Program-made: the position numbers and the translations under genes
From: an uncultured Candidatus Saccharibacteria bacterium
GTDB lineage: Bacteria > Patescibacteriota > JAQUNI01
Assembly: GCA_964555185.1 (NCBI GenBank)
Contig: CAZKRD010000004.1
Location: forward strand, 755-64,754
DNA length: 64,000 bases
Reading direction: 5' to 3'
Notes under the pieces: generated by a model
The model's database searches: none
The model's input: the letters and a program-made list of their open reading frames with translations, nothing else
Told to the model about the DNA's origin: nothing
Shown here: positions 6,263 through 55,658 of the stretch, one piece after another
Position numbering within the stretch: the stretch's first letter is position 1
Layout of the letters: each line of letters opens with the position of its first letter

Positions 6263-6270
6263 CTTCCCTT

Positions 6271-13827: not shown

Positions 13828-13871
13828 TAACGATTATATGCGAATTTGCAACGGGGCTAACCCAAACCAAA

Positions 13872-17338: not shown

Positions 17339-17339
17339 T

Positions 17340-17472
17340 TTTCAATTTTCAAGTACCAATTTACAATCAATTTTCAATAACCAATGATTAAATGTTCAAA
17401 CGGTTTGAAAATTTAATCATTTAAAATTATGATTTGATTGAAAATTGAGAATTGTAAATTGAAAATTAACCA
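17340..17472. repeat. AT-rich long imperfect palindrome (ttttcaa/ccaatga modules, centre caaacggtttg) filling the ileS-recO spacer
   Basis: The left arm ttttcaattttcaagtaccaatttacaatcaattttcaataaccaatgattaaatgttcaaac is approximately the reverse complement of the right arm. Confidence 0.75.
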
Positions 17473-18210: not shown

Positions 18211-18332
18211 TCAATTTTCAATAACCAATGAATAAATTTTCAAACAAAACCATTTTCGCAGGTTTGAAAATTAAATCATTGAACCTTCGGATTTGATTGA
18301 AAATTGAGATTTGTAAATTGAAAATTACCTTT
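18211..18332. repeat. AT-rich palindromic element, same family, with core ttttcaaacaaaaccattttcgcaggtttgaaaatt
   Basis: The core is the reverse complement of the core at 57200-57240, so the same element is present in both orientations. Confidence 0.75.
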
Positions 18333-25725: not shown

Positions 25726-26781
25726 ATGATCAAAAAACAAATTACTTTCGACATTTCGTCAATGACGATTGTTAAGATTGTCTTCGTCCTTTTGGGTTTA
25801 ACGGTTTTGTATTTAGTCCGGGACATCATTGCTATTTTATTCACTAGTGTTGTGATCGCCGCGGCCTTAAACAGAACAGTGAATCGGCTGCAAAAGAAGA
25901 AGGTGCCGCGCTCTTTGAGCGTGATTTTGATTTATCTGATTCTGATTAGCGTGATCACCCTGTCTATTTATCTTCTGATCCCGCCGATTACTACTCAAAT
26001 CAAGGAGTTGTCCAGTCAGTTCCCTGATCTTTACGATAGATTCATCCCTCGGATTTTGGGGATAGAGGGTTTTTCCTTGAGAGAGGAGTTTGTTGCCGGC
26101 ACCCAAGGGCTTCTTTCTTCTTTAGGCGATAACATCACCTCTGCCGGCCGGACTGTTTTTAGTACTTTGGGGACTATTTTTGGGGGCATTATTTCCGCGA
26201 TCGCGGTTCTGGCTTTATCTTTTTATTTGATTGTTCAAGAGAATGCTTTGAAAAATTTTATCCGCCTGTGCGTGCCAAAGCGCCGCTCGCCTTACATCAT
26301 TGATTTAATTGACCGGATTAACGGAAAGATTGGGAGATGGCTTTCGGGCCAGATTATTCTTTGTATTGTGGTCGGACTTTTTACTTTCTTGGGTTTATGG
26401 CTTTTGGGAGTGCGGTACGCTTTGGTTTTGGCGATTTTTGCCGGACTGACTGAGATCGTCCCTTATATCGGTCCGATCATTGGCGCAATTCCCGCGATTT
26501 TCCTTGCTTTTATCCAATCGCCTCTCTTGGCCCTGTTTGTGGTTATCCTCTATTTTATAGTCCAACAGCTTGAAAACCATGTTTTTGTTCCTAAGATAAT
26601 GCAGAAAGCGATTGGGCTTAATCCCGTGGTTGTGATCTGCGCTTTGTTGATTGGAGGCAAGCTTGCTGGTATTTTGGGGATGATTTTGGCCGTGCCCGTG
26701 GCCACGGGGATTTCGGTTTTTGTCAAGGATTATGTTCAAGGAAACACGAAGGGCAAAACGAAAAAGGCAAAAGTTAATTAG
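25726..26781 (+). CDS. AI-2E family transporter (UPF0118)
   Basis: Multi-TM topology and a C-terminal QQLENHVFVPKIMQKAIGLNPVVVI..GGKLAGILGMILAVP. Confidence 0.75.
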   Translation: MIKKQITFDISSMTIVKIVFVLLGLTVLYLVRDIIAILFTSVVIAAALNRTVNRLQKKKVPRSLSVILIYLILISVITLSIYLLIPPITTQIKELSSQFPDLYDRFIPRILGIEGFSLREEFVAGTQGLLSSLGDNITSAGRTVFSTLGTIFGGIISAIAVLALSFYLIVQENALKNFIRLCVPKRRSPYIIDLIDRINGKIGRWLSGQIILCIVVGLFTFLGLWLLGVRYALVLAIFAGLTEIVPYIGPIIGAIPAIFLAFIQSPLLALFVVILYFIVQQLENHVFVPKIMQKAIGLNPVVVICALLIGGKLAGILGMILAVPVATGISVFVKDYVQGNTKGKTKKAKVN

Positions 26782-26847
26782 CGAATTAACGGATTAAAGG
26801 ATTAATTTTTAAATTCGTAATCCGTTAATTCGGTAATCCGTCAAATT
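26782..26847. repeat. Short palindrome cgaattaacggattaaaggattaatttttaaattcgtaatccgttaattcg
   Basis: Read directly from the sequence. Confidence 0.6.
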
Positions 26848-27534
26848 GTGTTGTATATCATCGCTACTCCCATTGGTAATTTGGAGGATTTAAGCTTGCG
26901 GGCTCTGCGGGTGTTGCGCGGGGTGGATTTGATTTTGTGTGAAGACACGCGGACTACAGGGAAGCTAGTAAAGCACTATCAAATCAAGACACGTCTTTTA
27001 AGCTATCATACTCATTCAGGCGAGAAACGGACGAGCCGCATTTTGAATTTATTGAAAGAGGGCAAGGATTTAGCCCTGGTTACTGATTCGGGCACACCTG
27101 GGATCTCTGACCCCGGCGCAAGATTGATCGGCCAGTTGGTCTCCGAAGATCCCGAGGCGGAGATTTTTTGTGTTCCCGGGCCTTCTGCTTTGACTGCTGC
27201 TGCTTCTCTTTCTGCTTTTCCGACCAATCGATTTTTATTTTTAGGATTCTTGCCGCGCAAAAAAGGAAGAAAAAAATTATTAGAGTCACTGCCGCAAACC
27301 AAGGGGACCATCATTTTTTACGAGTCCCCTTATCGGATTAAAAAAACCCTCAAAGAATTGCAGGGAATTTTGCAAAATCGGCCAATTGAAGTTTTTCGGG
27401 AATTAACTAAAAAATTTGAAACAATTTACCGCGGTCAGGCCAAAGAGGTTTTGGCGAATCTGCCGGATAAAGTGCGGGGAGAGATTGTGGTCATTATTGG
27501 ACCGTCCTTTTTGACCCGAGAGAACAAATCTTGA
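26848..27534 (+). CDS. rsmI: 16S rRNA (cytidine1402-2'-O)-methyltransferase
   Basis: IATPIGNLEDLSLRAL..DLILCEDTR and TDSGTPGISDPG. Confidence 0.85.
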   Translation: MLYIIATPIGNLEDLSLRALRVLRGVDLILCEDTRTTGKLVKHYQIKTRLLSYHTHSGEKRTSRILNLLKEGKDLALVTDSGTPGISDPGARLIGQLVSEDPEAEIFCVPGPSALTAAASLSAFPTNRFLFLGFLPRKKGRKKLLESLPQTKGTIIFYESPYRIKKTLKELQGILQNRPIEVFRELTKKFETIYRGQAKEVLANLPDKVRGEIVVIIGPSFLTRENKS

Positions 27535-27547
27535 AGCTGTTTAACTC

Positions 27548-27814
27548 TTAAGCTTCTATTTTTGTCTGTTCGTTTGTTCTTCCGCCAGAGACGGCTTTTA
27601 ACGCTTTTTCCTCCAAGATTTTTATAATCTTTTTTGTTATTTGGGATTTTCCGGGATTGTTTGAGAACTGGGTTGCCGCATGGGTAATTTGGGCGATCGC
27701 TGTTCTTTGGTCATCAAGCTGGGAAACAATCTCCAAAGCTTTTTCCGCCAGGGAGTTTTTGCCCGTGTTCAGGACTTCAAAGAACAAGTCCCAAAATGCT
27801 TTCTTTTGATCCAT
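27548..27814 (-). CDS. Hypothetical small protein (88 aa)
   Basis: Only an ORF between rsmI and metG, with no recognisable motif. Confidence 0.3.
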   Translation of the reverse strand: MDQKKAFWDLFFEVLNTGKNSLAEKALEIVSQLDDQRTAIAQITHAATQFSNNPGKSQITKKIIKILEEKALKAVSGGRTNEQTKIEA

Positions 27815-27855
27815 TTTAGATAGTTAATTTTCTAAGATATTTAATTTTAGCACAA

Positions 27856-29277
27856 TTGAAATCTGTGTCAACAGAGAAGAAATTTTATATCACCACCCCG
27901 ATTTATTATGTCAATGATAAACCGCATGCCGGCCACGCTTACACCACGATTGCAGCGGATGTTTTAGCGCGCTGGCATAGAATCCAAGGAAAGGATGTTT
28001 TCTTTTTGACTGGGACGGATGAGCATGGAGCGAAAGTAGCAGAAGCAGCAAGCGTGGCTGGTAGAAAACCAAAAGAATTTTGTGATCAAATCGCAGGCAA
28101 GTTTAAGCAGGCCTGGCAAAACCTGAATATTGATTATGACTATTTTATTCGCACTACTGATCCCAAACACCAAAAGGGAGTTATTGATTTTTTGACTCGG
28201 CTAAAAAAGGAAGGTTATCTGTATGAAAAGGATTACTCCGGATTATACTGCGTTGGTTGTGAGAAGTTTATTACGGAAAAGGAATTAGTAGGCGGGAAAT
28301 GTCCAGACCACGGCCAGGTGCCGGAACAAGTCACGGAAAAGAACTGGTTTTTTAAACTCAAGGAATTTTTGCCTCGGGTGAAAAAAAAGATATCAAAAGG
28401 TGAACTCAAGATTGAGCCAGAGAGCGCTCTCGGGGAGACGATGGGACTCTTGAAGCAAGACTTAGATGACTTTTCTGTTTCGCGCCAGAGAGTAGATTGG
28501 GGGATTAAACTCCCCTGGGATCAGAAACAGAGTATCTACGTTTGGATAGACGCGCTGTTGAATTATTGGACCGCGGTAAAAGAAGCGGGGCGCGGGAAAT
28601 ATTGGCCGCCGGATTTGCATTTGATTGGCAAGGATATTTTGAAATTTCACGCTGTCTTCTGGCCGGCAATGCTGCTCGCGGCAGGCGAAGATTTGCTGCC
28701 TCGCCAGATTTTTGTCCATGGTTACTTCACGATCAATGGCCAGAAGATGTCCAAGACCCTGGGTAATGTGATTGACCCCAATGACCTGGTAAAGAAATAC
28801 GGCGCGGACGCAACCCGCTATTTGCTCTTGAGCCAATTTCCTTTTGGGAGCGATGGAGATATATCCCTTGCGAAATTAACCACAACCTATAATGCGGATT
28901 TAGCGAACGGTTTAGGGAACTTGGTGGCCAGAGTAATAAATTTCCAATTTCCAATTTCCAATTTCCAAATAAATCCCAATTTCCAATTTCCAAACTCCAA
29001 ACTTCGTAAATATAATGATTTAATGAAAGAATTAAAGTTGTTTGAGGTAGTAAAGTTTATTAGAGAGAAGATTAAAGAGTGCAATAATCTTATTGAAAAA
29101 GAGAAACCCTGGGAAATAAAAGAAAGGAATAAATTAGAGAAAATTATTGATCCGATTCTTTTGAAAATTATTACTGTCGCTGAAATGATTCGGCCTTTTA
29201 TGCCGGATACGTATAATAAGATTCAGAGGATACTGAAAACAGGAAAGAAAGAGATATTGTTTCCGAGGGTAAAATAA
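27856..29277 (+). CDS. metG: Methionine--tRNA ligase with an in-frame repeat insertion
   Basis: PIYYVNDKPHAGHAYTTIAADVLARW (HIGH-type) and KMSKTLGN. Confidence 0.9.
   Translation: MKSVSTEKKFYITTPIYYVNDKPHAGHAYTTIAADVLARWHRIQGKDVFFLTGTDEHGAKVAEAASVAGRKPKEFCDQIAGKFKQAWQNLNIDYDYFIRTTDPKHQKGVIDFLTRLKKEGYLYEKDYSGLYCVGCEKFITEKELVGGKCPDHGQVPEQVTEKNWFFKLKEFLPRVKKKISKGELKIEPESALGETMGLLKQDLDDFSVSRQRVDWGIKLPWDQKQSIYVWIDALLNYWTAVKEAGRGKYWPPDLHLIGKDILKFHAVFWPAMLLAAGEDLLPRQIFVHGYFTINGQKMSKTLGNVIDPNDLVKKYGADATRYLLLSQFPFGSDGDISLAKLTTTYNADLANGLGNLVARVINFQFPISNFQINPNFQFPNSKLRKYNDLMKELKLFEVVKFIREKIKECNNLIEKEKPWEIKERNKLEKIIDPILLKIITVAEMIRPFMPDTYNKIQRILKTGKKEILFPRVK
28938..29003 (+). repeat. In-frame ttccaat-heptamer array inside metG, encoding INFQFPISNFQINPNFQFPNSKL
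   Basis: Same array as ileS 15641-15700. It sits right after the conserved GNLVAR block. Confidence 0.65.
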
Positions 29278-40539: not shown

Positions 40540-41196
40540 ATGAATATTATCAAAATTAACCCAGCCAATCCTGATCCCAAAGTAATAGAAAAAGCCGCCC
40601 GAGTTATCCTCAAGGGCGGTTCTGTTGTTTTACCCACAGACACAGCTTATGGTTTGGCAGTCAATGCTTTGGATCGGAAAGCAGTGAAAAAGCTTTTTAG
40701 AATCAAAACCAGGGCGAAAAATAAGCCTCTGCCGGTTGCGGTTTTAGAGATAAAGCAGGCGCAAAAATTAGCTTTTTTTGATAGCCGGGCTTTGAGTTTG
40801 GCAAAAGAATTTTGGCCGAGCGCTTTGACCTTGGTCTTACGAAAGAAAGAAGTCGTGCCGAAAGAAGTTACTGGCTATGAAGAGACGATTGGTTTGCGGA
40901 TTCCTGATTCCAGGGTTTGTTTGACTCTTGCCGACAGGGCGCAAGTTCCGTATACTATAACTAGCGCTAACATAAGCGGAGGAGAAATTCCCTATTCTGT
41001 TTTGGAAGTGGTTAGGCAATTTGAGAATAGAAAGTGGCAACCCGATTTGATTTTAGACGGCGGGACTTTGGTTAAAATAAAGCCTTCAACAGTGGTTGAT
41101 TTGTCAGAAGAAGGTGAAATAAAAGTGTTAAGACAGGGAGAAGTAGAAATAAACGCAAAACGCAAAAATCAAATCTCAAAATGTAATCCAAAATAG
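40540..41196 (+). CDS. tsaC: L-threonylcarbamoyladenylate synthase (YrdC/Sua5/TsaC family)
   Basis: ILKGGSVVLPTDTAYGLAVNA. Confidence 0.8.
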   Translation: MNIIKINPANPDPKVIEKAARVILKGGSVVLPTDTAYGLAVNALDRKAVKKLFRIKTRAKNKPLPVAVLEIKQAQKLAFFDSRALSLAKEFWPSALTLVLRKKEVVPKEVTGYEETIGLRIPDSRVCLTLADRAQVPYTITSANISGGEIPYSVLEVVRQFENRKWQPDLILDGGTLVKIKPSTVVDLSEEGEIKVLRQGEVEINAKRKNQISKCNPK

Positions 41197-41256
41197 AAAA
41201 AGCCTCTATTAAATCCTTCTTTTTACATTTTGAATTTTCATTTTGCATTTTGACAT

Positions 41257-42484: not shown

Positions 42485-43729
42485 ATGGAGAATATTCTTA
42501 AAATGCAGGATCCGCCGGCTTTCCGTGCCCTGCAGGGTGAGATCCAAAGACAAAAGAATGGCATTGAATTGATTGCTTCAGAGAATTACGTGTCAAAAGC
42601 GGTTTTGGCGGCAATGGGTTCGGTTTTGACCAACAAATATTCCGAAGGTTATCCCGGGAAGCGCTATTATGGCGGCAATCAGTATATTGATCAGGCAGAA
42701 AAGCTCGCAATCCGGCGCGCCAAGCAGTTATTTGGCGCCGAACATGTTAATGTTCAGCCTTATTCTGGTTCGCCGGCAAATCTTGAGGTTTATTGGGCCT
42801 TGGTGCCTTTGGGGGGCAAGATCATGGGTTTAAGTCTAGCCCACGGCGGCCACTTAACCCACGGTCACAAAGTTAATTTCTCCGGCAAAGCTTACGAAGT
42901 GGCCTCTTACGGCGTGGAGCGGAGCGGCCGGATTTCTTATGCCAAGGTCCGAGCTTTGGCTAGAGAAGAAAAACCGGATTTGATTATTTCCGGCTATACC
43001 GCTTATCCGCGCAAGATTGATTTTAAAAAGTTCAAAGAAATCGGGGACGAGGTCGGCGCGATCTCAATGGCTGATATCTCGCATATCGCGGGTTTGATCG
43101 CGGCCGGCTTGCATCCCAATCCCGTTCCCTATTTTGACGTGGTTACAACCACGACCCACAAGACCCTGCGCGGACCGCGGGGGGCGATGATTATGTGTAA
43201 GCGCAAGTGGGCAAAAGCGATTGACCGCGCGGTTTTTCCGGGGATGCAGGGCGGGCCGCATAATCATATTAATCTTGCTAAAGCAGTTGCTTTTGGCGAG
43301 GCGCAAGAGCCGGAATTTAAAACCTATTGCCGCCAGATTATTAAGAATGCCAAAATCTTAGCTCGCGCTTTGATTGCTTTGAAATTTGATCTGGTGTCCG
43401 GAGGCACGGATACTCATTTGATGCTTCTCGATTTAACCAATAAAAAGATTACGGGCAAGCGGGCGGAGCACACTTTAGAGCAGGCCGGGATCACTTTAAA
43501 CAAAAACATGGTTCCCTTTGATCCCCGTTCGCCGTTCGATCCGTCAGGAGTCAGGATCGGGACGCCGGCTGTCACCAGCCGCGGGATGGCAGAACCCGAG
43601 ATGAAGAAGATCGCGGCCTGGATTGACCGCGCGATTAAAGCAAAGGGCCGCAAGGCAAGCTTAAAGAAGATCGCTCGCGAAATTAAGGATTTCTGCCAAG
43701 ATTTTCCCGTACCAGGGATTGATCAATAA
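42485..43729 (+). CDS. glyA: Serine hydroxymethyltransferase
   Basis: LIASENYVS, PLP-lysine region TTTTHKTLRGPRG. Confidence 0.9.
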   Translation: MENILKMQDPPAFRALQGEIQRQKNGIELIASENYVSKAVLAAMGSVLTNKYSEGYPGKRYYGGNQYIDQAEKLAIRRAKQLFGAEHVNVQPYSGSPANLEVYWALVPLGGKIMGLSLAHGGHLTHGHKVNFSGKAYEVASYGVERSGRISYAKVRALAREEKPDLIISGYTAYPRKIDFKKFKEIGDEVGAISMADISHIAGLIAAGLHPNPVPYFDVVTTTTHKTLRGPRGAMIMCKRKWAKAIDRAVFPGMQGGPHNHINLAKAVAFGEAQEPEFKTYCRQIIKNAKILARALIALKFDLVSGGTDTHLMLLDLTNKKITGKRAEHTLEQAGITLNKNMVPFDPRSPFDPSGVRIGTPAVTSRGMAEPEMKKIAAWIDRAIKAKGRKASLKKIAREIKDFCQDFPVPGIDQ

Positions 43730-43755: not shown

Positions 43756-43793
43756 AGCAGGGGTTGAATATATTAAACCCCTGCTTTTATTTT
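43756..43793 (+). terminator. Rho-independent terminator for glyA (agcaggggtt-gaatatatta-aacccctgct, then ttttatttt)
   Basis: 10-bp stem, 10-nt loop and a U-tract. Confidence 0.75.
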
Positions 43794-44022
43794 AATTAAA
43801 AAACAGCCTTTTTTTTGGGCTCTTGCCAGCTTGTTTAGCTGCCTGGGCATTTTTCGTGCCATGCTCATCTGTGCCTGTGGAAAATAATACCTCCTCCCCC
43901 AAAACTTGGTGATACCGAGCCAAAACATCTGCCTGGATAATCTCCAAAGCAAATCCAACATGGGGAATCCGATTTGTATAAACAATACTGGTGGGAATAT
44001 AGAACTTTTTCATTAAATCCAT
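43792..44022 (-). pseudogene. N-terminal ~70-aa fragment of a second, divergent methionyl-tRNA synthetase gene
   Basis: YIPTSIVYTNRIPHVGFALEIIQADVLARYHQVLGEEVLFSTGTDEHGTKNAQAAKQAGKSP aligns with metG residues 12-80. The frame terminates at an A8 tract. Confidence 0.65.
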
Positions 44023-44136
44023 TCTATCATATTTTTTGATAATTTCCAGTTGAAATAAAGAAGCGCTGACAATCTTGTCAGCGCTTATTTTTGATATGTT
44101 TGACGTCGCAAGTTAAACATTGTATTTGTGAAGGTG

Positions 44137-44379
44137 CTACAATTCTTCTGGATTTTTAATGTACTGTACTACCCATCCTCCGACAATTATGGCAGCACCA
44201 GCAATAGCTCCCCAGATGAATACTTTATCGACTAGGCAGACAAGCGATAATATGATAAGAGCCGATCCAACTCTTTGCATAATGTCCCATGGTTGCTTCG
44301 TTGTGCGCCATAGAATCAAAGCAGCTACGAACAAAGAGGCAAATAACTTTGGCCAAGTGAACAGAAACATTGCTTTCAC
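44137..44379 (-). CDS. Hypothetical small two-TM membrane protein (80 aa)
   Basis: Hydrophobic segments only. Confidence 0.3.
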   Translation of the reverse strand: MKAMFLFTWPKLFASLFVAALILWRTTKQPWDIMQRVGSALIILSLVCLVDKVFIWGAIAGAAIIVGGWVVQYIKNPEEL

Positions 44380-44388
44380 CTCCTAGAA

Positions 44389-45072
44389 TTATTCTTTATG
44401 GACTATAACCACAAATTCTCCTCTTACCTTACCACTTTTTATTTTATTTGCAACCTCTGCTGGGGTGCCGCGGTAGGTTGTTTCAAATTTTTTGGTTAGT
44501 TCGCGGCAAACCATTATTTGTCGGGATTCTTCGCTAACGCTCAGAATGACAGCCAATTCATTAAGGGTTTTTAAAATTCTGTGCGGTGATTCATACAAAA
44601 TGACCGGGTATTTTGAAGCTACGACCTGTTCAAAAAACTTCTTGCGCTTGCGCTTGGCTGGCGGAAACCCTAAAAACAGAAACTTGTCCATTGGAAAACC
44701 GGAAATACTAGCTGCAGCTGTTACTGTCGACGGCCCAGACACCGGCATAATCTTCACACTATGTTTAAGGTCGGGTTGTAAACATTGTTTAATTAGTTTG
44801 TTGCCCGGGTCGGAGATGCCGGGCGTGCCGGCGTCAGAAACCAGGGCTAAATTCTTCCCTCTCTCTAAAAGTTTCAAAATATAGTCAACTTTTTTTAATT
44901 TGCTGTGCTGGTGATAAGAAAGCGTGGGAGTGACTATTTTATAGCGGCCTAACAATTTTTTAGTTACCCTGGTATCTTCGCACAAAATTAAATCAACCCC
45001 CTGCAACACTTCTAAAGCTCGGGGGCTGATTTCTTTGAGATTTCCAATCGGAGTCGCAACGATATATAGAAT
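44389..45072 (-). CDS. rsmI: Second, divergent rsmI paralog (about 55% identical to 26848-27534). It has no ATG: the ORF-track start at 45009 is GTG (V), and the conserved N-terminus ILYIVATPIGNLKEISPRALEV continues upstream to ~45072 with only ATT/ATA/GTG candidate starts
   Basis: Translating upstream of 45009 gives the RsmI N-terminal motif ATPIGNL, with a stop at 45082-45084. Confidence 0.6.
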   Translation of the reverse strand: MLYIVATPIGNLKEISPRALEVLQGVDLILCEDTRVTKKLLGRYKIVTPTLSYHQHSKLKKVDYILKLLERGKNLALVSDAGTPGISDPGNKLIKQCLQPDLKHSVKIMPVSGPSTVTAAASISGFPMDKFLFLGFPPAKRKRKKFFEQVVASKYPVILYESPHRILKTLNELAVILSVSEESRQIMVCRELTKKFETTYRGTPAEVANKIKSGKVRGEFVVIVHKE

Positions 45073-45104
45073 AGATATATCTTAATATATCTTAATATAT
45101 CTTA
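45067..45104. repeat. Tandem repeat atatatcttaat x3 abutting the 5' end of the rsmI paralog
   Basis: gatatatcttaatatatcttaatatatcttac. A related atatcttaatatcttac run lies at 57361-57390. Confidence 0.6.
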
Positions 45105-45347
45105 CAAAACTACTGCTTTTGCGTCTTTTCGCTTTTTCAGGAAATCCCTAAGAAATTCAAACAATATGCCGGCCAAAGGGATAGCCAGGAGCGCTCCTAA
45201 AAAGCCCCAGAGTTTTCCGCCAACAAACAAAGCAACCAGAACCAAAACCGGAGGGATGCCAATGAATTTCTTGCTTAAAATCGGCGTCAAGATACCACCT
45301 TCAATCTGCTGAATCAGAACAAAAATTATTTTTGCATTCGCAACCAT
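45102..45347 (-). pseudogene. C-terminal 81-aa fragment of an AI-2E family transporter
   Basis: IQQIEGGILTPILSKKFIGIPPVLVLVALFVGGKLWGFLGALLAIPLAG aligns with the C-terminus of the intact AI-2E gene at 25726-26781. No upstream remainder is present. Confidence 0.6.
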
Positions 45348-46008
45348 AAAAAGGCTTAATGGAAATCAGTAGTTCCGGCATAAATTCTTCACATTTCTGG
45401 TGTCGCAATTCCTGGAGATTTCTAATTTCTTCCGCACTTTCCCCTTTGTTTATGCAGGTTAAATCAGTTCCTCCTAATTTATTTTCCGACAACAGCTCCG
45501 CCACAATACAATCCTTATCAGCTGAGCAACTTTTATTTAACTCTGTGATTTTTTTGTTAATTTCATCAAGGAGATCCTCGCAATATGTTTTTATCTCTGC
45601 CTTCGGCTCTTCTTTAATCGGTGAGTAAGATATAACATTAATTGTTTTCCCTTCGGATCGACAGAAATACTCCTCAACAATGTTTCCTTCGATAGTTAAT
45701 GTCGTATTTTGAAGATTCCACAACTCATCTTCAAGTGGACCAATTAGACAATAAGTTTTTTCTCCCTCGATCTCTAAACCTAATTTTGTAAAAGGTTCAT
45801 TTCCAAAAACATAAACTCGTCCCGTTTTTGTAATTGTTGATGGTTTTTCATCTGCAGGAACCGAAGGAGCTTTCCCTTCTGGCGCTTCCAAATATTGCCA
45901 GGCTAAAATCCCTCCGGCCAAAAGTGTAACTAGAACAATAATAAAAATTCCTACAGGTGTAGAAATTCTTTTATTTGAAAATTTGGGTTGATTATCCATA
46001 AATTTCAC
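45301..46008 (-). CDS. Hypothetical Cys-rich membrane-anchored or secreted protein
   Basis: N-terminal TM helix and 9 Cys in the C-terminal half. Confidence 0.4.
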   Translation of the reverse strand: MKFMDNQPKFSNKRISTPVGIFIIVLVTLLAGGILAWQYLEAPEGKAPSVPADEKPSTITKTGRVYVFGNEPFTKLGLEIEGEKTYCLIGPLEDELWNLQNTTLTIEGNIVEEYFCRSEGKTINVISYSPIKEEPKAEIKTYCEDLLDEINKKITELNKSCSADKDCIVAELLSENKLGGTDLTCINKGESAEEIRNLQELRHQKCEEFMPELLISIKPFYGCECKNNFCSDSAD

Positions 46009-46168
46009 TTTTTAATTAAATGATTATTTCGACTTTTATAAAAATTTTCTTTTACAGTTCCGCTCTGCGGGACACAAAACCAAAAATTAAATTTTGACTG
46101 GAAAATCCCGTATAATTTGGTCGCCGAGCGAAGCGAGGCGACCTCCAAATCATTGACTTTTTCTCGGT

Positions 46169-46213
46169 GGTGCCGCGGGTGGGAGTTGAACCCACACGGG
46201 CTTGAGGCTCATA
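46169..46213 (-). pseudogene. Orphan 3'-half tRNA fragment (T-arm gtgggttcaactcccac, acceptor 3' strand ccgcggc, ACCA) lacking a 5' half
   Basis: No complementary gccgcgg 5' acceptor strand within 100 nt. It sits immediately downstream of tRNA-Leu. Confidence 0.5.
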
Positions 46214-46234
46214 CGATATAGCATATTTATCAAT

Positions 46235-46324
46235 TGGTGGGGATGGAGGGATTTGAACCCTCACGGACTTTGAAAGCCCAATGGTTTTTGAAACCATCCT
46301 GTCTACCAGTTCCAGCACATCCCC
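46235..46324 (-). tRNA. tRNA-Leu(CAA), with a long variable arm and an encoded CCA
   Basis: Reverse complement gives GGGGATG..(anticodon loop tt-CAA-aa)..long V-arm..GAGGGTTCAAATCCCTC..CATCCCC-ACCA. Confidence 0.8.
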
Positions 46325-48334: not shown

Positions 48335-50551
48335 TCAACTCACAGATCCACATTCTTTATTGCTGCAGACTTCTGTTTTTTCTTTGCCATAGACCATTAG
48401 ACTGCCGCATTCGGGACATTTCTTGCCGGTGGGTTTGCTCCAGAGCGCGAACTCGCATTTAGGATACTGATTGCAGGCATAGAAGGTTCGGCCTTTCTTG
48501 CTGCGCTTTTCGATAATATCTCCCTTTTCACATTTGGGGCAGGTGACGCCAGTCTTCTTTTCAATCGACTTGATGTTTTTACAATCAGGATATCCAGAAC
48601 AACCGAGGAAAGGGCCAAACCGGCCGTGTCGGAGCACCATTGCCTTGCCGCATTTCTCGCATTTCTTGGCACCGATTGCTTTAGCGAGGGTCTTTTCTTC
48701 GCCTAAGGGCTTTGTGTGTTTACATTCTGGAAAACCAGTACAGGCTAAGAATTTGCCAAAGCGGCCGAGTTTGATCACAAGCTTCTTGCCGCACTTGGGG
48801 CATTTTTTGCGGGTTTTGGTTTCGGCAATATCTTTTTTTTGCACTTGTTTTTCTTTTTTCTTTAGGTTTTTAAGAAAGGGGTCATAGAATTCGCGCACGA
48901 CCGGCACCCATTCCTTTTTATTTTGAGCAATCGCGTCTAGGTCATTTTCGATCTTGGCGGTAAATTTGAGATCAACGATCTGGGGGAAATGCCGGACCAA
49001 GACATCGTTGACTACGATTCCGATTTCTTTAGGGTGAAGTTTTTTTTCCTTTTTTTCTACATAACCGCGCGCCTGGATCGTGGAAATGATCGCCGCGTAG
49101 GTGGAGGGGCGGCCAATCCCGTTTGCTTCAAGAGCGCGGACCAGGGTTGCCTCGCCGTAGCGCGCCGGCGGTTCAGTGAAGTGCTGGTTTGGGAGAAGTT
49201 TTTTAAGGTCGACGATCTCGCCCTTTTTTAAAACGGGGAGGATGTTCTCTTTGGTTGAGGACGGATAGACTTTGGTAAAACCGTCAAATTTGACGATCGC
49301 TCCCTCGGCGCGGAAGGTATGGTCGCGAGCCTGTATGTCCACTTTCGTGGAGTCGATAATCGCTTCTTGCATCTGGCAGGCGATCGTCCGTTTCCAGATT
49401 AGTTCGTAGAGCTTATACTGTCTAGCGTCAAGAAAGGGTTTTACTTTTTCGGGGGGCAAGCTTTTTGGTTCAGTGGGGCGGATCGCTTCGTGGGCTTCTT
49501 GCGCGAGCTTTGATTTGGTTTTATAAATGCGAGGGTCCCTGGGCAGGTATTTGGGACCAAATTGTTTTTTGATTTGATTGCGGATCTCTGACACTGCCTT
49601 TTTAGCGAGGTTTGTTGAATCGGTGCGCATATAGGTGATTAAGCCCTCTGCTTCTCCTTTATTAAGCTTGATTCCTTCATAAAGCTTTTGCGCTAAATAC
49701 ATTGTCTGTTTGGTTGAAAACCCTAATGTCCCCGCGGCTGTTTGCTGCAGGGTGGAGGTGGTAAACGGCGGCAAGGGAGATTTTTTGATTTCTTTCCGCT
49801 CAACCTTGCAGACCGTAAAGCGGGCTTTCTTGAGGGACCTCACAATTTCCTGGACCCTCCTTTTGTTTTTAAGCCCCAGTTTTCCTAAAAGCTTCCCATT
49901 CTGTTTGGTAAGGAGGGCGCGGAAGACATCTTCCGTTTTTGGTTTAGCTTTTCTTCTTTTTTGCAGATTTGCTTCCAGGGTCCAGTATTCTTCAGATTTG
50001 AATTTTTTGATTTTCTTTTCACGGTCAACAATCAAGCGCAGGGCGGCTGATTGGACTCGGCCGGCAGAGAGGCCTCTTGCCACTTTGCGCCAAAGAAAAG
50101 GGGAGAGTTTGTACCCGACCAGCCGATCCAAAATTCTTCTGGCCTGCTGGGCGTCAACCAGGTTCATATTAATCTGGCGCGGTTTTTTGAAGGAAGCTAA
50201 AACAGCCCTCCGGGTTATTTCGTGAAAAGCGATTCTTTGGATTTTTTTTGGGTCAAGCTTCAAAGCATAGGTTAAGTGCCAGGAGATCGCTTCGCCCTCG
50301 CGGTCTTCGTCAGTGGCTAGATATATTTCTTTTGACTTGGCGGCTAGATCTTTTAGTTTTTTGACTTGTTTTTTTGCTTCTTCTGGGATTACGTATTCAG
50401 GCTCAAAGTTTTTCCGGGTATTGACCCCTAACCCCTTTTTTGGCAAGTCCCGGATATGGCCATAGGATGATTCGACGCGGAAACTAGAATCCAAAAAGCG
50501 AGAAATTGTATTTGCTTTGGTCGGGGATTCGACAATCACGAGTTTTTTCAT
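48335..50551 (-). CDS. topA: DNA topoisomerase I with C-terminal zinc-ribbon repeats
   Basis: Toprim N-terminus LVIVESPTKA, and four CPKCG-type zinc fingers. Confidence 0.9.
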   Translation of the reverse strand: MKKLVIVESPTKANTISRFLDSSFRVESSYGHIRDLPKKGLGVNTRKNFEPEYVIPEEAKKQVKKLKDLAAKSKEIYLATDEDREGEAISWHLTYALKLDPKKIQRIAFHEITRRAVLASFKKPRQINMNLVDAQQARRILDRLVGYKLSPFLWRKVARGLSAGRVQSAALRLIVDREKKIKKFKSEEYWTLEANLQKRRKAKPKTEDVFRALLTKQNGKLLGKLGLKNKRRVQEIVRSLKKARFTVCKVERKEIKKSPLPPFTTSTLQQTAAGTLGFSTKQTMYLAQKLYEGIKLNKGEAEGLITYMRTDSTNLAKKAVSEIRNQIKKQFGPKYLPRDPRIYKTKSKLAQEAHEAIRPTEPKSLPPEKVKPFLDARQYKLYELIWKRTIACQMQEAIIDSTKVDIQARDHTFRAEGAIVKFDGFTKVYPSSTKENILPVLKKGEIVDLKKLLPNQHFTEPPARYGEATLVRALEANGIGRPSTYAAIISTIQARGYVEKKEKKLHPKEIGIVVNDVLVRHFPQIVDLKFTAKIENDLDAIAQNKKEWVPVVREFYDPFLKNLKKKEKQVQKKDIAETKTRKKCPKCGKKLVIKLGRFGKFLACTGFPECKHTKPLGEEKTLAKAIGAKKCEKCGKAMVLRHGRFGPFLGCSGYPDCKNIKSIEKKTGVTCPKCEKGDIIEKRSKKGRTFYACNQYPKCEFALWSKPTGKKCPECGSLMVYGKEKTEVCSNKECGSVS

Positions 50552-51687
50552 AAATTCGTTAACTGATTAATGATATAGTTTCCTGACCCAACATTGCGGA
50601 CCATACCTTTCATTTCTAGGAGTGTCAAGATTGTGGATACTTGCCCGGAACTAAATTTACCCTTCCTGATTACTTCGTTGATATGGGTTGGTTCTTGGGA
50701 GAGATATTTTAAAATTATGGCCTCTTCTTGGGTGGCGCTCGGCTTTTGGATTGTTTTGGAAGTTTTTAAAGAGAGGTTTAGATTGAGCTCGTCTAGGATG
50801 TCTTGGGTGTCTGATACCAATTTTGCGCCCATTTTAATCAGGTTGTTGGTGCCGCGGGAATAGGGATTATAGATTGAGCCCGGGATCGCGAAAATGTCGC
50901 GATTCTGATCCAAGGCGGCGCGGGCAGTGATCGAAGTCCCGCTTCTTTCCGCCGCCTCAATGACCAGGAGGCCGCGGGACAAGCCGGCGATGATCCGGTT
51001 GCGCTGGGGAAAGTTTTGTTTTCGGGCCGGGGCGCCGGGAGGATATTCCGAGATTAAGGCGCCGCCGTGTCCTAAAATTCTTTGGGCCAACTTAAAGTTA
51101 GTGCGCGGATAGATTGACTGATCATCAATGCCGCTTCCTAAAACAGCGATCGTGTGGCCGGCAAAGGAAAGACAGGCCTGATGGGCGAGGGCGTCAATGC
51201 CCAGGGCGAGACCGGAGACAATGCTGATTTTGATTTGGGAGAGGAGTCCGACGATTTGGAAGGTTACCTGCCGTCCGTAGCTGGTCGGCTTCCGCGTGCC
51301 GACCACGCTTAGATAGATATTGCCGGGTTTCTTGATTTCTCCTTTTAAATACAAGAGGGCGGGCGGGTCGTAAATTTCTTTCAAACTTTTTGGATACTTT
51401 TTGTTTTGAATCGTAATGATCTTGATTCCTTGTTGTCGAACCTTCTGGAGTGCTTCTGCGGGATTAATTCCAGAACGTGCGGATATGATTTGTCTTGCTT
51501 CTTTTTCTTCTAGCCCTGCCCGCTTGAGTTCCAAGAGAGGAGCAAACCAGGCTTGTTCTAAATCGGGGAAATAAGAGAGCAATTTTTTGAAACAAAGAGG
51601 GCCCACACCGGGGATGAGGTTAAAACCGTGGTAATATTGGCTGACAGATTCCATGGCTTTTTGACAATTAAGGGAGGGGGGTGGCAA
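50548..51687 (-). CDS. dprA: DNA processing protein DprA (SMF family)
   Basis: GLALGIDALAHQACL..GHTIAVLGSGID Rossmann core and a C-terminal winged helix. Confidence 0.8.
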   Translation of the reverse strand: MPPPSLNCQKAMESVSQYYHGFNLIPGVGPLCFKKLLSYFPDLEQAWFAPLLELKRAGLEEKEARQIISARSGINPAEALQKVRQQGIKIITIQNKKYPKSLKEIYDPPALLYLKGEIKKPGNIYLSVVGTRKPTSYGRQVTFQIVGLLSQIKISIVSGLALGIDALAHQACLSFAGHTIAVLGSGIDDQSIYPRTNFKLAQRILGHGGALISEYPPGAPARKQNFPQRNRIIAGLSRGLLVIEAAERSGTSITARAALDQNRDIFAIPGSIYNPYSRGTNNLIKMGAKLVSDTQDILDELNLNLSLKTSKTIQKPSATQEEAIILKYLSQEPTHINEVIRKGKFSSGQVSTILTLLEMKGMVRNVGSGNYIINQLTNL

Positions 51688-51710
51688 GATAGCGGCTCGG
51701 TGACGTTTTT

Positions 51711-54700
51711 TTAGTTGGCCAGTATTTTAAGATTTTGTTTTAATTTTTTAAGCCAATTCTTACCTAAGGAAGAAAAATCAATTTTGAGCCGGCAAGGGCC
51801 TTCGGTTTCGCTGATGATCCAGGCGGGGTTTGTCTTAAAGAGTTGATCCAAAGTATTGCTTTCCGGTGTTTCTACAAAATCCAGGACGATCCTTTTTCTG
51901 GATTGATGATCCAAGCCAAAGACGTTAATCGTGTCAATTGTTTTAATTCTTGCTCTCCGGGCAAGGATTTTTATTTTTAAAATCTCAAAAAGATTTTTAA
52001 ATTCCAGGGGCAGAAGACCGTACTTGCCTTCAATTTTATTTTTGAGGCGGCGGATTTCCGGGAAATTTTTTGCTCGGCTCAAGCAATGGTAGGCAGTGAG
52101 TCTTTTTTTCTCGCTTGAAATAAAAGAAGGAGGAATCCGAGCGGGAAGCGGCAGATCAATGCTTACTTCCAAGACGGGTTTTGCCTTTTTGCCGGTAGTA
52201 AGTTCGGAAATTGTCTGTTTGAGCAGTTCGGTATAGAGGTGGAGACCCACGGAATTGACACTGCCAGACTGTTTGCGGCCCAGGATATTGCCGGCGCCGC
52301 GTATTTCAAGATCGCGCAGAGCGATATTGAAGCCGGAGCCAAGGCCTTGCAGGGCGAGCAGGGCAGAGAGCCGCTCCCGGGCGTTAGCAGGAAGTTTTTC
52401 TCTTTGATAGAGGAGATAAGCGTAGGCCTGGCGTGTTCCTCGGCCAATTCGGCCCCGGATCTGATAGAGCTGGGAGAGGCCAAAATTGGGGCTGTTGTGG
52501 ACAATCAAGGTATTAACATTGGGCAGGTCCAGCCCGTTTTCAATGATCGTGGTGGCGACCAGAATGTCAATCCGGCCTTGATCGAATTCGTGCATCACCG
52601 AAGAGAGGTCATGATCAGACAGTCTGCCGTGGGCAATGTCAATTCGCGCCCGCGGCGCTAATTTCTGGATTTTTTTAGCCTGGGCGAGAATAGTTTCTAC
52701 TTTGTTGTAAAGGTAGTAGACTTGGCCTTTTCGTTTCAGTTCAAAATCGATTGCTTTTTTTATAATATCATCTTTGCGCAATTTAACATATGTTTTGACC
52801 GACTTCCGGCCCGCGGGGGGAGTTTTAATTGGGCTGACTTCCCGCAAACCAGAGAGGGCCAAATGGAGGGTGCGGGGGATCGGGGTGGCGGAAAGGGTTA
52901 GGATGTCCAGATTGGCGCGCAGCTGTTTTAGTTTTTCTTTATGGCGGACGCCGAATCTCTGTTCTTCGTCAATAATCAGGAGGCCTAGGTTTTCGAAGTT
53001 AACATCGCGCGAGAGGAGACGGTGAGTGCCGATTATGATCTCTATTTTGCCTTGGGAAAGTTTTTTGACAATTCTTTTTTGTTCTGATTTTGACTGGAAG
53101 CGGCTCAAAAGTTCAATTTTAGAGGAGAATTTTTTGAATCTTTCTCGGAAGGTGCCTAGGTGTTGCTGGGCGAGAATGGTGGTCGGCGCGAGGAGACAAA
53201 CCTGTTTCCCGTTATTCAGCGCTTTGAAGGCCGCGCGCATCGCGATTTCGGTTTTACCAAAGCCGACATCGCCGCAAATCAAGCGGTCCATCGGTTTATC
53301 GCTTTCCATATCTTTTTTAACCTTTTGGATCGCCTTTTCTTGGTCAGGGGTTTCCGGGTAGGGAAAGGAATTTTCAAATTTTCTCTGGGCAGGGGTATCT
53401 ACTCCAAAGACGAAGCCTTTTTGGGTTTGGCGCTTGGCCTGGATTTTAAGCAATTCCTCGGCCATTTTTTTCGCGTCTTCTTCGACCTGTCTTTTGATTT
53501 GGTGCCAGAGGGCTCCGTGCAGGCGGTGGATCGGGGGATTAGCCCGCCCCAGATAGCGGGCGATCCGGTCAGCTTGATCAATCGGCAGAAAGAGTTTGTC
53601 GCCTTGGGCGTATTCAAGCAAGTAATATTCCCGCGTGATTCCGTTAATTTCCTTTTGGACCATGCCGCGGAACAGGCCGATGCCGTGATTGAGGTGGACT
53701 ACGTGCATCCCCGAGACAAGGCCGGCGATAAATTCGTAATCAATCTGGTAGCGCGGCTGGCGGGATGACCGGCGCCAATGCCCAAAGATTTCCGTGTCGG
53801 TGAGGACCAGGACTTTTGCTTGGTCATTTTGGAAACCTCTTTGGAGTTTAATCGGTATCAAGGAGCAGTCGGTTTTGAGATTTTCTTTTTTAAGTTTTTT
53901 TGTGGAGACAAAGATCCTGTATTTATTTTTTTTAAAGCGGCGGATCGCTGTCCAGAATTTGTCTTGATTGCCAAAAAAGAGAGGAGGATTTTTAAACTGA
54001 AATTCGCGGCTGTTTTTCGTTTTTGGCGGGCTTGTCCGCCGAAGCCTATTGAGCGAAGGCGGAAAGGCCTGGAAAATAATTAAATTCTGCTTCAATTTAT
54101 TTTTTAAAAGGTTTTCTGGTTCGTTAAGGATTACTCTTGCTTGAGGAGCGAGCCAGTCCAAAATACTGCCTTGCGGCTTTTTGATCCTTGCCGGGAGAAT
54201 GGTTATTCTATTGTTCCATTTTTTCCCCGCGGGCTTGTGAAGCGAACCTTTTAGGGCTTCATTGTTGTTTTTTGGGGACCTGATTGTTTCGACTTTGTTG
54301 CCAAACAGTTCAATCCAAATACAGTGTTTTTGGAAGAAAGGGAAGATCTCCAAGATATTTCCCCGGCGGGCAAAGTTGCCTGGGATAAGCGCCCTTTTTT
54401 CTTTTTGGTAGCCAGCACTCAAAAGGAAGCCAATCAATTTTGGCAGATTAATTTTTTCTCCTTTTTCAAGGACCAATCCTGCTTTTTCCAATTCTTGAGG
54501 CGCGGGCAGTTTTACCTCCAGAATTTTAATCGGCGCCACGATCAGGCAGTTTTGATTTTCTTTTAGGAGCGATAATAGGGATAATCCCTCTCTGCCTGTT
54601 GTTAGCTCTGGAATCAGTTTCAGAATTTGCTTTTGTCTTTTTTGAGCCGTATTTTCAAGCCAGAATTTAATTCGCTTAAACCAAATTCTTGGATTTTTGA

Positions 54701-54800
54701 CTAATAGAAGAGAAGCCCCTTGCCAAAAGAGGGGGGAGTGGATCAAGAGCCAGGGTTTTGCTTCTTCCGGGACCAAGGCCAAGTATCTAGTTTTAGCCAA
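51711..54800 (-). CDS. mfd: Transcription-repair coupling factor
   Basis: CGDVGFGKTEIA (Walker A), DEEQRFGV and a TRCF C-terminal domain. Confidence 0.9.
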   Translation of the reverse strand: MAKTRYLALVPEEAKPWLLIHSPLFWQGASLLLVKNPRIWFKRIKFWLENTAQKRQKQILKLIPELTTGREGLSLLSLLKENQNCLIVAPIKILEVKLPAPQELEKAGLVLEKGEKINLPKLIGFLLSAGYQKEKRALIPGNFARRGNILEIFPFFQKHCIWIELFGNKVETIRSPKNNNEALKGSLHKPAGKKWNNRITILPARIKKPQGSILDWLAPQARVILNEPENLLKNKLKQNLIIFQAFPPSLNRLRRTSPPKTKNSREFQFKNPPLFFGNQDKFWTAIRRFKKNKYRIFVSTKKLKKENLKTDCSLIPIKLQRGFQNDQAKVLVLTDTEIFGHWRRSSRQPRYQIDYEFIAGLVSGMHVVHLNHGIGLFRGMVQKEINGITREYYLLEYAQGDKLFLPIDQADRIARYLGRANPPIHRLHGALWHQIKRQVEEDAKKMAEELLKIQAKRQTQKGFVFGVDTPAQRKFENSFPYPETPDQEKAIQKVKKDMESDKPMDRLICGDVGFGKTEIAMRAAFKALNNGKQVCLLAPTTILAQQHLGTFRERFKKFSSKIELLSRFQSKSEQKRIVKKLSQGKIEIIIGTHRLLSRDVNFENLGLLIIDEEQRFGVRHKEKLKQLRANLDILTLSATPIPRTLHLALSGLREVSPIKTPPAGRKSVKTYVKLRKDDIIKKAIDFELKRKGQVYYLYNKVETILAQAKKIQKLAPRARIDIAHGRLSDHDLSSVMHEFDQGRIDILVATTIIENGLDLPNVNTLIVHNSPNFGLSQLYQIRGRIGRGTRQAYAYLLYQREKLPANARERLSALLALQGLGSGFNIALRDLEIRGAGNILGRKQSGSVNSVGLHLYTELLKQTISELTTGKKAKPVLEVSIDLPLPARIPPSFISSEKKRLTAYHCLSRAKNFPEIRRLKNKIEGKYGLLPLEFKNLFEILKIKILARRARIKTIDTINVFGLDHQSRKRIVLDFVETPESNTLDQLFKTNPAWIISETEGPCRLKIDFSSLGKNWLKKLKQNLKILAN

Positions 54801-54810
54801 ATTTATTGCT

Positions 54811-54845
54811 TGGGGTCCCCGGAAAATCGAAGATTTTTTGGGGTA
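54811..54845 (+). promoter_or_regulatory. Second copy of the 35-nt double-dyad motif (tggggtccccggaaaatcgaagattttttggggta), immediately followed by TTGACA-17-TAAGCT
   Basis: 33/35 identity to 34544-34578. Confidence 0.5.
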
Positions 54846-54884
54846 CTTGATTGACAGGGCTTTCTCCTTATGCTAAGCTTATTC

Positions 54885-55060
54885 GATTTGCCGCTATATC
54901 GGGAATTATATATTCTTTACTATCCCGCTTGCAAGTGGTGAAAGTAGAAAGCCAATCCCTCCTTAGACTTTTTACGAGTAACTGTCAACATAAAGTTCGG
55001 GTCCTCGTGACTTTCTGAATTTTAGACTTACAAGTGGGATAGTGGAGGATATTTTTTTTA
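54885..55060 (+). ncRNA. Candidate structured small RNA in the pth-mfd spacer. A 16-bp long-range helix (tatcccgcttgcaagt / acttacaagtgggata) encloses ~95 nt and is followed by ggaggat and a T8 tract
   Basis: Helix and U-tract read directly. It does not match RNase P, SRP or tmRNA cores. Confidence 0.25.
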
Positions 55061-55061
55061 A

Positions 55062-55143
55062 TTTCCAATGACCAATTTCCAATTTTCAAATAACAAGAAG
55101 CTTGGTTATTGATTGGAAATTGGGATTTGGAAATTGAAAATTA
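55062..55143. repeat. Perfect palindrome centred on aagctt (ttccaatgaccaatttccaattttcaaataacaag-aagctt-ggttattgattggaaattgggatttggaaattgaaaatt). The pth stop codon lies at its centre, and the right arm encodes the pth C-terminus ELIFNFQIPISNQ
   Basis: Reverse-complement check. The pth stop is at 55106-55108. Confidence 0.8.
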
Positions 55144-55645
55144 ACTCCCCCAGGGCTTCCTGGGTTGTTTTTTTTATTTTAATTTTTTCGTTGAAGGGCA
55201 GTTTTTGGAGAACAAATTTCTCGGTTGGTATCCTGCTTGGGGTTTCGGGCTTGATTCCTATCCGCAGGCGGTGAAAGGCGTGGGTGCCCAGCGAGTCTAT
55301 AATCGATTGGACGCCCTTATGCCCGGCAGAGCTTATGTTTTTTTGAATTTTGAATTTACCTGAACTGATGTCAATGTCGTCGTGGATTACCCAGAGGTTT
55401 TCCGGTTTCAGTTTATAGAAGTTGACCAGGGCAGCGACACTTTGGCCGGAGTTGTTCATATAGGTTTGGGGTTTTGCTAGAATCAGGTTATCTTTTTTAG
55501 AGATTTTGGCTTTAAATTTTTTTCGGACCGTAAAAGCAGGGAAGTCTAATTTTTTTTTGAGCGCCTGGACTACAAAAAAACCGACATTATGTCGACTCGC
55601 TTTGTATTTTCCCCCAGGGTTGCCAAGTCCTACGATTAAGTCCAT
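55106..55645 (-). CDS. pth: Peptidyl-tRNA hydrolase, starting at MDLIVGLGNPG. The C-terminal tail derives from the palindromic repeat
   Basis: GLGNPG..Y..TRHN(V)GF N-terminal motif. Confidence 0.85.
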   Translation of the reverse strand: MDLIVGLGNPGGKYKASRHNVGFFVVQALKKKLDFPAFTVRKKFKAKISKKDNLILAKPQTYMNNSGQSVAALVNFYKLKPENLWVIHDDIDISSGKFKIQKNISSAGHKGVQSIIDSLGTHAFHRLRIGIKPETPSRIPTEKFVLQKLPFNEKIKIKKTTQEALGELIFNFQIPISNQ

Positions 55646-55658
55646 AGGTTTTTGTTTT

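Follow-up and report, generated by a model that had tools for sequence, protein, structure and literature searches.

The 64,000-nt stretch of DNA analyzed here (the window; contig CAZKRD010000004.1 of an uncultured Candidatus Saccharibacteria bacterium) comes from scaffold_1 (707 kb) of the ENA assembly ERZ23486238 and carries two versions of a gene block containing an AI-2E family permease gene, rsmI, and metG. The resident block is complete and lies on the plus strand (25726..29277) in the conserved order M16 peptidase-AI-2E-rsmI-metG-tatD; it consists of the AI-2E permease gene (25726-26781), rsmI-1 (26848-27534), and metG (27856-29277), with an 88-aa open reading frame (ORF; 27548-27814) between the last two on the minus strand, opposite to rsmI-1. 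The second block, which is our subject, lies on the minus strand between its left neighbor glyA (42485-43729, plus strand) and the resident tRNA-Leu(CAA) (46235..46324, minus strand), a gene divergent to parA that is the conserved neighbor of the site.

Read along the minus strand, the second block begins with AI-2E' (45102..45325), the last 71 codons and stop codon of a foreign AI-2E family permease gene. It continues with rsmI-2, a frame of 229 codons counting from an ATA at 45078-45076 (44389..45078) with a product of the 16S rRNA C1402 2'-O-methyltransferase family, and closes with metG' (43813..44022), which comprises codons 1-70 of a foreign methionyl-tRNA synthetase (MetRS) gene. Pfam searches and alignments placed the ORFs and their homologies where a preliminary description of this DNA had put them: an 81-aa ORF at 45102-45347 with an AI-2E permease C-terminus in its residues 7-77 (positions 264-325 of the 327 in the Pfam AI-2E_transport profile); an rsmI frame of 227 codons at 44389-45072 lacking a canonical start; and a 76-aa ORF at 43792-44022, ending at an A8 run, residues 1-70 of which are a MetRS N-terminus (Pfam tRNA-synt_1g, positions 2-65 of 391). 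Each stump matches only one end of its Pfam family profile. The first six codons of the 81-aa ORF and the last six of the 76-aa ORF are not gene-derived, and homology to true AI-2E and metG genes is limited to about 45325 through about 43817; the block boundaries are indeed gene-internal, as had been described, but the inserted DNA is larger than the block itself (43825-46169). The same description had a four-gene order reappearing, and this holds for AI-2E, rsmI, and metG but not for the small ORFs, which do not align and are not homologous, the resident one, in addition, running opposite to rsmI. When the two loci were aligned as nucleotides, the homology was confined to the three gene-derived parts.

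The two versions of the block are distant from one another. RsmI-1 and RsmI-2 are 57.7% identical (E 3e-83), close to the earlier estimate of about 55%; the frame is open, but its natural 3' end has been cut off by a 350-nt insertion. AI-2E' has 38% amino acid identity to the resident AI-2E permease, and metG' has 56-58% to the resident MetRS. A protein search with RsmI-2 across 5.8 billion proteins returned thousands of Patescibacteria RsmI sequences, from which the best 119 were taken for comparison; all 119 are 66-79% identical to RsmI-2, closer than RsmI-1 is, and in a neighbor-joining tree rooted on RsmI-1 the sister of RsmI-2 is P0002-P0004. Three contigs supply the genomic context: L005 and L007 have the complete M16 peptidase-AI-2E-rsmI-metG order, and L006, which is from the same metagenome assembly as the host, has rsmI-metG together with an AI-2E end at the contig edge. 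Amino acid identity to these contigs reaches 86-87% for AI-2E' (L005 and L007), 75-79% for RsmI-2 (all three), and 94% for metG' (L005 and L006 only; 86% at the nucleotide level), whereas the host's own genes are given as 30-58% identical to L005-L007 (AI-2E 30%, RsmI 57%, MetRS 45%, M16 49%, TatD 43%). Host genes average 45.5% GC and 48.6 +/- 4.6% GC at third codon positions (GC3); rsmI-2 has 42% GC and 42% GC3, and the L005-L007 contigs have 38.5-40% GC, the block being intermediate between host and donor-clade values in both measures. These comparisons mark the second block as foreign, with its origin in another Patescibacteria lineage and not in the resident block. Of the two origins offered in the preliminary description, the gain of a homologous segment of a related organism's DNA is the one supported, by the identities (75-94% to other Patescibacteria against 38-58% to the resident genes), by the placement of RsmI-2 in the tree, and by an empty site in a close relative. 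The donor would have come from the lineage of which L005, L006, and L007 are representatives, and one member of this lineage is present in the same community.

The empty site is found in L198, a JGI contig located through the 90% cluster of the neighboring MFS transporter. It is 88-92% identical to the window at the nucleotide level over 21 kb, agrees with it in gene order from leuS through mfd, and encodes a tRNA-Leu(CAA) identical to the resident gene across the part compared (the L099 copy is 90% identical). Position 12546 of L198 corresponds to window position 43824, and 12555 to 46170; in place of the window's 2,345 bp (43825-46169) there are 8 nt, TTTAAACA, and the empty junction sequence reads GGGCTCTTTTTAAACAGTGCCGCGGG. 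With the stretch absent from this close relative and the flanks collinear, we infer that the 2,345 bp were inserted after the host split from L198, its closest sampled relative. More distant relatives have other genes in the same interval, an FAD oxidoreductase in L099, and a protease, rve transposase, and M16 peptidase in L101, so the spot is variable. A glyA search of the GTDB representative genomes yielded no close relative of the host (the best matches, at no more than 67%, were DPANN archaea and Gracilibacteria), and exact-protein look-ups for glyA and parA yielded no other genomic context for the host species.

From the tRNA side, the inserted stretch comprises a tRNA-type 3' end with its flank, orf235, AI-2E', rsmI-2, the 350-nt insertion with orf77, and metG'. 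The tRNA-Leu 3' end remnant (46168..46215, minus strand) retains the variable arm, T arm, acceptor, and CCA, and the flank next to it (46085..46167, minus strand), which is absent from L198, includes the hairpin GGTCGCCTCGCTTCGCTCGGCGACC (46119-46143). The product of orf235 (45301..46008, minus strand) is membrane-anchored and Cys-rich; the gene has 35.9% GC and 27% GC3, as against 45.5% and 48.6% in host genes, its last seven codons or so are read from AI-2E' DNA in a different frame, and it falls within the stretch that L198 lacks. No homologues of orf235 were found beyond an N-terminal membrane anchor in common with P0122, and nothing was found in viral contigs.

The right junction, on the glyA side, coincides with the 8-nt sequence GGGCTCTT (43817..43824, as read on the plus strand), which is common to the L198 empty site and to donor-like metG (the reverse complement of L005) and is placed exactly where metG homology stops; the alignments thus identify this as a microhomology join. 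The left junction falls within the tRNA-Leu remnant. Here the native alignment picks up again at 46170, and the tRNA-side end of the insert is the last ~45 nt of a tRNA-Leu, CCA included. A more degenerate tRNA-Leu remnant is already present at the same position in L198, so the incoming DNA and the recipient would have shared short homology there: GTGCCGCGGGTG within the remnant is an exact 12-nt match to L198, set in about 58 nt of ~80% identity over which the exact crossover is not placeable. No target-site duplication or terminal inverted repeat was found around the block or around the 350-nt insertion.

The sequences of the stumps bear on the age of the event. Synonymous divergence (dS) of the block from L005 and L007 is 0.9-2.4, near saturation, and the ratio of non-synonymous (dN) to synonymous divergence is 0.023 for metG', 0.03-0.08 for AI-2E', and 0.12-0.19 for rsmI-2 (0.147 between the rsmI genes of L005 and L007). 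The stumps contain no stops and no frameshifts. For metG' the total is 4 amino acid differences in 70 codons, donor-lineage divergence included (dN 0.025), and a three-point estimate of the dN on the AI-2E' branch is ~0.04. So little non-synonymous change at near-saturated dS indicates that nearly all of the divergence arose in the donor lineage, when the genes still worked. Between host and L198 dS is 0.16-0.24, or ~0.1 per lineage; the dN values of metG' and AI-2E' cap neutral decay below this figure, which would make the insertion younger than the host-L198 split, and the low decay of the stumps also argues against a loss in L198. The two stumps appear little decayed since the transfer, as is consistent with a recent insertion.

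rsmI-2 is probably a young pseudogene. It has ATA at 45078-45076, the position two codons before the LYIV motif where 111 of the 119 homologues start; the start region (45078-45067) reads ATA TCT ATT CTA, an in-frame TAA stands at 45084-45082, and the alternative start used in L007 is ATT in rsmI-2. No canonical start was found at the family N-terminus that would retain TPIGNL, and no purine-rich ribosome-binding site was found 5' of the frame. The first canonical start, a GTG at 45009, would lose eight columns conserved at >=95% (TPIGNL, D, and R of the TPIGNL..D...R motif) and give a 206-residue product scoring 184.9 bits on TIGR00096. Just upstream of the frame, between it and the AI-2E' stop codon, a 10-nt sequence is repeated in tandem as three perfect TAAGATATAT copies (45075..45104, minus strand), where relatives have a single short junction and L007 a tight stop-start junction. 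At the other end, the 350-nt insertion (44051..44400, minus strand), absent in L005, L006, and L007, breaks the gene eight codons ahead of its natural stop, and the displaced natural 3' end lies beyond it at 44027..44050 on the minus strand (ACTGGAAATTATCAAAAAATATGA, translated TGNYQKI*; compare SGNSQKM* in L005). RsmI-2 deviates from the family at 3 of the 91 columns that are >=95% conserved, which is within the range of the homologues; its PGPSA motif carries P112S and A116T, and A116 is invariant in the 119 homologues. Of single substitutions, 4.8% would make a stop, and the probability that none has arisen is 0.44 for a neutral divergence of 2.5% and 0.27 for one of 4% (0.27-0.72 for <=4%); an open frame is to be expected by chance at such small divergence, and is therefore uninformative. 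The suggestion in the preliminary description that an intact rsmI paralog may still be functional is left doubtful by the ATA at the family start, the triplication upstream, and the interrupted 3' end.

The 350-nt insertion encodes orf77 (77 aa from ATG; 44137-44370, minus strand), which is preceded by an AGGAGG ribosome-binding site, and contains a terminator-like hairpin at 44061-44086. No homologue of orf77 was found among 1.84 billion cluster representatives, it has no Pfam or NCBIfam match, and no second copy of the insertion was found in the window or in any fetched locus. Within the RsmI family, the loop before CRELTKKF is hypervariable in the 119 homologues and often has palindrome-like translations (FQVSSSKFQV, LQTTNYKLQT, AKTYNLEPE). 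RsmI-2 (44500-44560, residues ~175-188) and L007 (~1990-2080) are 95-97% identical over ~50-90 nt in this region, against 76% gene-wide, and the segment could be the product of an in-frame mini-insertion or of gene conversion.

The tRNA-Leu end of the inserted stretch recurs in other genomes. Exact matches to the 24-nt core of the remnant occur in 96 metagenome contigs; 20 of these were scanned, and in every one the core forms the 3' end of a tRNA-Leu, most often CAA. The 46085..46167 flank has 73-80% nucleotide identity, over ~85 nt, to what follows such tRNA-Leu genes in L194, L107, and L145; in L107 the flank stands beside tRNA-Leu next to parB, and in L145 it is likewise beside tRNA-Leu. 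In L194 (5793-7476) the gene for a 502-aa large serine recombinase by tRNA-Leu is enclosed by a 101-nt inverted repeat (91% complementary), and the flank makes up one of the repeat's arms. The tRNA-Leu flank may be a recombination site, or part of an invertible or mobile cassette. A recombinase is present at 1 of the 96 loci bearing this tRNA end, and no recombinase or integrase was found in 43825-46169, where a tblastn search with the L194 recombinase recovered only a 41-residue repeat-arm stretch; neither orf235 nor orf77 has a Pfam recombinase domain. The tRNA 3' end is not directly repeated at the two borders: the remnant stands at a single border, 31 nt away from the intact tRNA, and the glyA border has no counterpart of it; the remnant has no match in the viral contig collection, and an Rfam scan of 43.5-46.6 kb detected tRNA-Leu only. 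Logan contigs from at least three runs start or stop in the hairpin GGTCGCCTCGCTTCGCTCGGCGACC at 46113-46142 (30-nt overlaps), and one contig reads through. Strain variation was considered as the cause of these breaks and dropped, as they coincide with a GC hairpin and one contig is continuous, and they are treated as a repeat-induced graph break; the GGTCGCCTCGCTTCGCTCGGCGACC motif is single in the window and is probably repeated elsewhere in the community.

The explanation that we consider probable is that, after the split from L198, 2,345 bp of foreign DNA (43825-46169) came to lie in the short spacer that separates the glyA terminator from tRNA-Leu(CAA), and that the block is non-functional. 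The incoming DNA would be a random chromosome piece of another Patescibacterium, cut within the AI-2E permease gene and within metG, that was joined on the glyA side by illegitimate recombination at the 8-nt microhomology and on the tRNA side in the pre-existing tRNA-Leu 3' end remnant. The most likely route would be DNA uptake via the competence machinery, followed by microhomology-mediated, perhaps weakly homology-assisted, integration. dprA is present in the window, the host thus encoding DprA. Competence (Com) genes are conserved throughout the candidate phyla radiation (CPR), whose Saccharibacteria have been shown to undergo natural transformation (PMC10633639); horizontal gene transfer (HGT) among groundwater Patescibacteria is documented and has been attributed partly to competence (PMC12455944); and illegitimate and homology-facilitated illegitimate recombination after natural transformation are known from Acinetobacter, Streptococcus pneumoniae, and Pseudomonas stutzeri (reviewed in PMC3240628). 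On this explanation the stumps could not encode functional proteins, nothing in the block would be likely to work, and the rsmI-2 frame would be open still because the time has been too short to break it.

Several observations weigh against this explanation. The polarity, insertion rather than deletion, leans on parsimony and on the decay argument, as there is no outgroup with the same spacer, and the inserted stretch is composite (tRNA end and flank, orf235, block) and may have arrived in one event or in several. No donor nearer than 79% at the amino acid level (76% nucleotide) was found among the 5.8 billion proteins searched, so that the donor is a putative one. The 227-residue conceptual product of rsmI-2 scores 231.6 bits on TIGR00096 (cut-off 167.9; resident RsmI-1, 225.4), the dN/dS of its branch, ~0.15, is not clearly relaxed, and a start at ATA or ATT is possible. 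Finally, the flank is linked in one other genome, L194, to a large serine recombinase, and a mobile element may have been involved.

The last of these points leads to a different account of the 2.3-kb stretch, as the decayed remains of a site-specific integrative element (of the large serine recombinase or tRNA-targeting kind) beside tRNA-Leu, with the chromosomal fragment as captured cargo. We regard this as possible, if rather unlikely. The stretch adjoins tRNA-Leu(CAA) and starts with a tRNA-Leu 3' end and a conserved flank, which in L194 is the arm of an inverted repeat around a recombinase gene; the older remnant that L198 has there points to previous events at the site, and orf235 is atypical in GC. 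Such an element would nonetheless have left neither a recombinase or integrase gene nor a fragment of one, its far junction would be a plain 8-nt microhomology in a housekeeping gene and not a second att-like repeat, nothing similar occurs in the viral contig collection, and the tRNA end is accompanied by a recombinase at just the one locus in 96. An unlikely proposition is that selection maintains rsmI-2 as a functional extra RsmI, or as a variant methyltransferase, translated from ATA or ATT or by re-initiation after AI-2E', the stumps being the ragged ends of the transfer. It would have to do without ATG, GTG, or TTG at or near the family start and without a purine-rich ribosome-binding site upstream, with a tandem triplication disrupting the stop-start arrangement seen in L007, with a severed natural 3' end, and with two PGPSA substitutions, one at a 100% conserved Ala, in a genome that already has a complete rsmI. 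Consistent with function are the TIGR00096 score, above both the cut-off and RsmI-1, the small number of deviations at conserved columns, a branch dN/dS like that of relatives, and the lack of a strong terminator between the orf235 region and rsmI-2, which makes read-through transcription possible; the frame is also open over 229 codons, as would be expected by chance at <=4% neutral divergence.

The remaining alternatives concern the history and the reality of the insertion. That the acquisition predates the host-L198 split, L198 having deleted the stretch, strikes us as quite unlikely: the non-synonymous change in the stumps (4 amino acids in 70 metG' codons) is far below the ~0.1 neutral substitutions per site that such an age would bring, and the deletion would need to stop exactly at the metG-derived GGGCTCTT, even if no outgroup has the same spacer, L099 and L101 holding different genes, and the 8-nt filler TTTAAACA in L198 is unexplained. 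An assembly mis-join with a contig of a co-occurring organism, a worry raised in the preliminary description, is very unlikely. A member of the donor clade (L006) does occur in the same metagenome, and the evidence comes from assemblies, not reads; independently assembled Logan contigs of SRR8482191 and SRR8482198 nevertheless span both junctions at 100% identity to the window, one of SRR8482192 is 100% identical and covers the right junction only, and all seven contigs encoding the exact RsmI-2 or glyA agree in context. The co-occurring donor-clade relative is only 76% identical at the nucleotide level, and the homology at the junctions, 8 and 12 nt, is too short to have misled a k-mer assembler. 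Least credible of all is the other origin first offered, an old in-genome duplication of the resident AI-2E-rsmI-metG block that is now decaying, despite the same gene order and similar length (~1.5 kb). Duplicates within a genome should be each other's closest relatives, and here the RsmI copies (57.7%) and the stumps (86-94% to foreign genes against 38-58% to resident ones) are less alike than each is to orthologues elsewhere. Functionless stumps of that age would be unrecognizable, where those observed have dN/dS values of 0.02-0.08, and the block is missing in a relative of ~91% nucleotide identity.

Some further features of the window and its relatives were noted. The start of the window (1-19426) maps beyond the end of the 706,972-bp ENA scaffold_1, and the window probably derives from a circularized or re-oriented record of the same genome. 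Large ORFs in 545-43729 are all on the plus strand and those right of parB (48335-57122) on the minus strand, so that genes converge on glyA-tRNA-Leu-parAB; the insertion site may be near a replication landmark, and GC skew over 38-52 kb gave no clear sign switch. The best matches of glyA among GTDB representatives (62-67% at the amino acid level) are in DPANN archaea, Gracilibacteria/Peregrinibacteria, and assorted bacteria, not in close Patescibacteria, which hints at a patchy, transfer-prone history for this gene. The donor-clade MetRS sequences (window 43813-44022; L005 6701-6910; L006 894-1103) have PH(I/V)GFALEII in place of the resident enzyme's PHAGHAYTTI, so that in the donor clade Phe replaces the final His of the class I HIGH motif in what are otherwise complete 491-aa enzymes. 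The resident MetRS (~28960-29040) and LeuRS (~31300-31370) contain repeat-like in-frame peptides, NFQFPISNFQINPNFQFPNSK and FQITNDKLQTNSKSN, that resemble the variable RsmI loop inserts. A 199-aa ORF in the tatD-leuS gap (30094-30693, plus strand) matches Pfam Y1_Tnp (IS200-like transposase, 30.3 bits) and overlaps the start of the longest leuS ORF. L198 has a NUDIX gene between sua5 and MFS (9526-9962) that is likely a pseudogene, as TGA takes the place of the conserved Trp in its ...W.LPGG motif; the host counterpart of the interval (41167-41232) is 65 nt only.

A trace of gene transfer is a known kind of event, seen here in a little-studied group. As a worked example of recent transfer between lineages of Patescibacteria, the locus combines an empty site, donor-clade relatives in the sample, and one resolved microhomology junction, and it corrects a reading of the DNA as an ancient duplicated housekeeping block with a spare rsmI. 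More tentatively, the locus may record, with a date and resolved junctions, how an uncultivated Patescibacterium took up random chromosomal DNA of a distantly related, co-occurring one and integrated it by microhomology beside the tRNA-Leu remnant; the remnant may be a recurrent landing pad, possibly tied to a recombinase cassette with 101-nt inverted repeats. Such fragments are usually missed, because HGT screens target whole genes; if debris of this sort were common in CPR genomes, it would provide a direct measure of transformation, both its rate and its range, in organisms that resist culture, and a systematic search could gauge how often competence yields illegitimate integration in reduced genomes. 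For annotation, the 206-aa "TP_methylase," the 81-aa "AI-2E," and the unannotated metG stump are best treated as pseudogene remnants.

The locus can be compared with three known systems. The conceptual translation of 44389-45072 resembles RsmI (TIGR00096) in passing the equivalog cut-off and keeping 88 of 91 conserved columns, but departs from it in having no canonical start at the family position, a displaced 3' end, and a complete resident rsmI with which it is redundant; it is best filed as an rsmI-derived pseudogene. With tRNA-adjacent genomic islets and islands the stretch shares its position by a tRNA gene, a partial copy of the tRNA 3' end, atypical composition, absence in a close relative, and other content in distant relatives; unlike them, it has no integrase, measures 2.3 kb, consists of housekeeping-gene debris, and has a far border of microhomology, not an att repeat. 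Transformation-linked illegitimate recombination is matched in the linear piece of unrelated chromosomal DNA with gene-internal ends, the microhomology at one end and short similarity at the other, and the competence genes in the recipient. It differs in that the event is here reconstructed from genomes and the inserted DNA is composite, and in that the possible homologous anchor, a tRNA remnant of ~45 nt with 12 nt exact, is far shorter than the anchors used in experiments.

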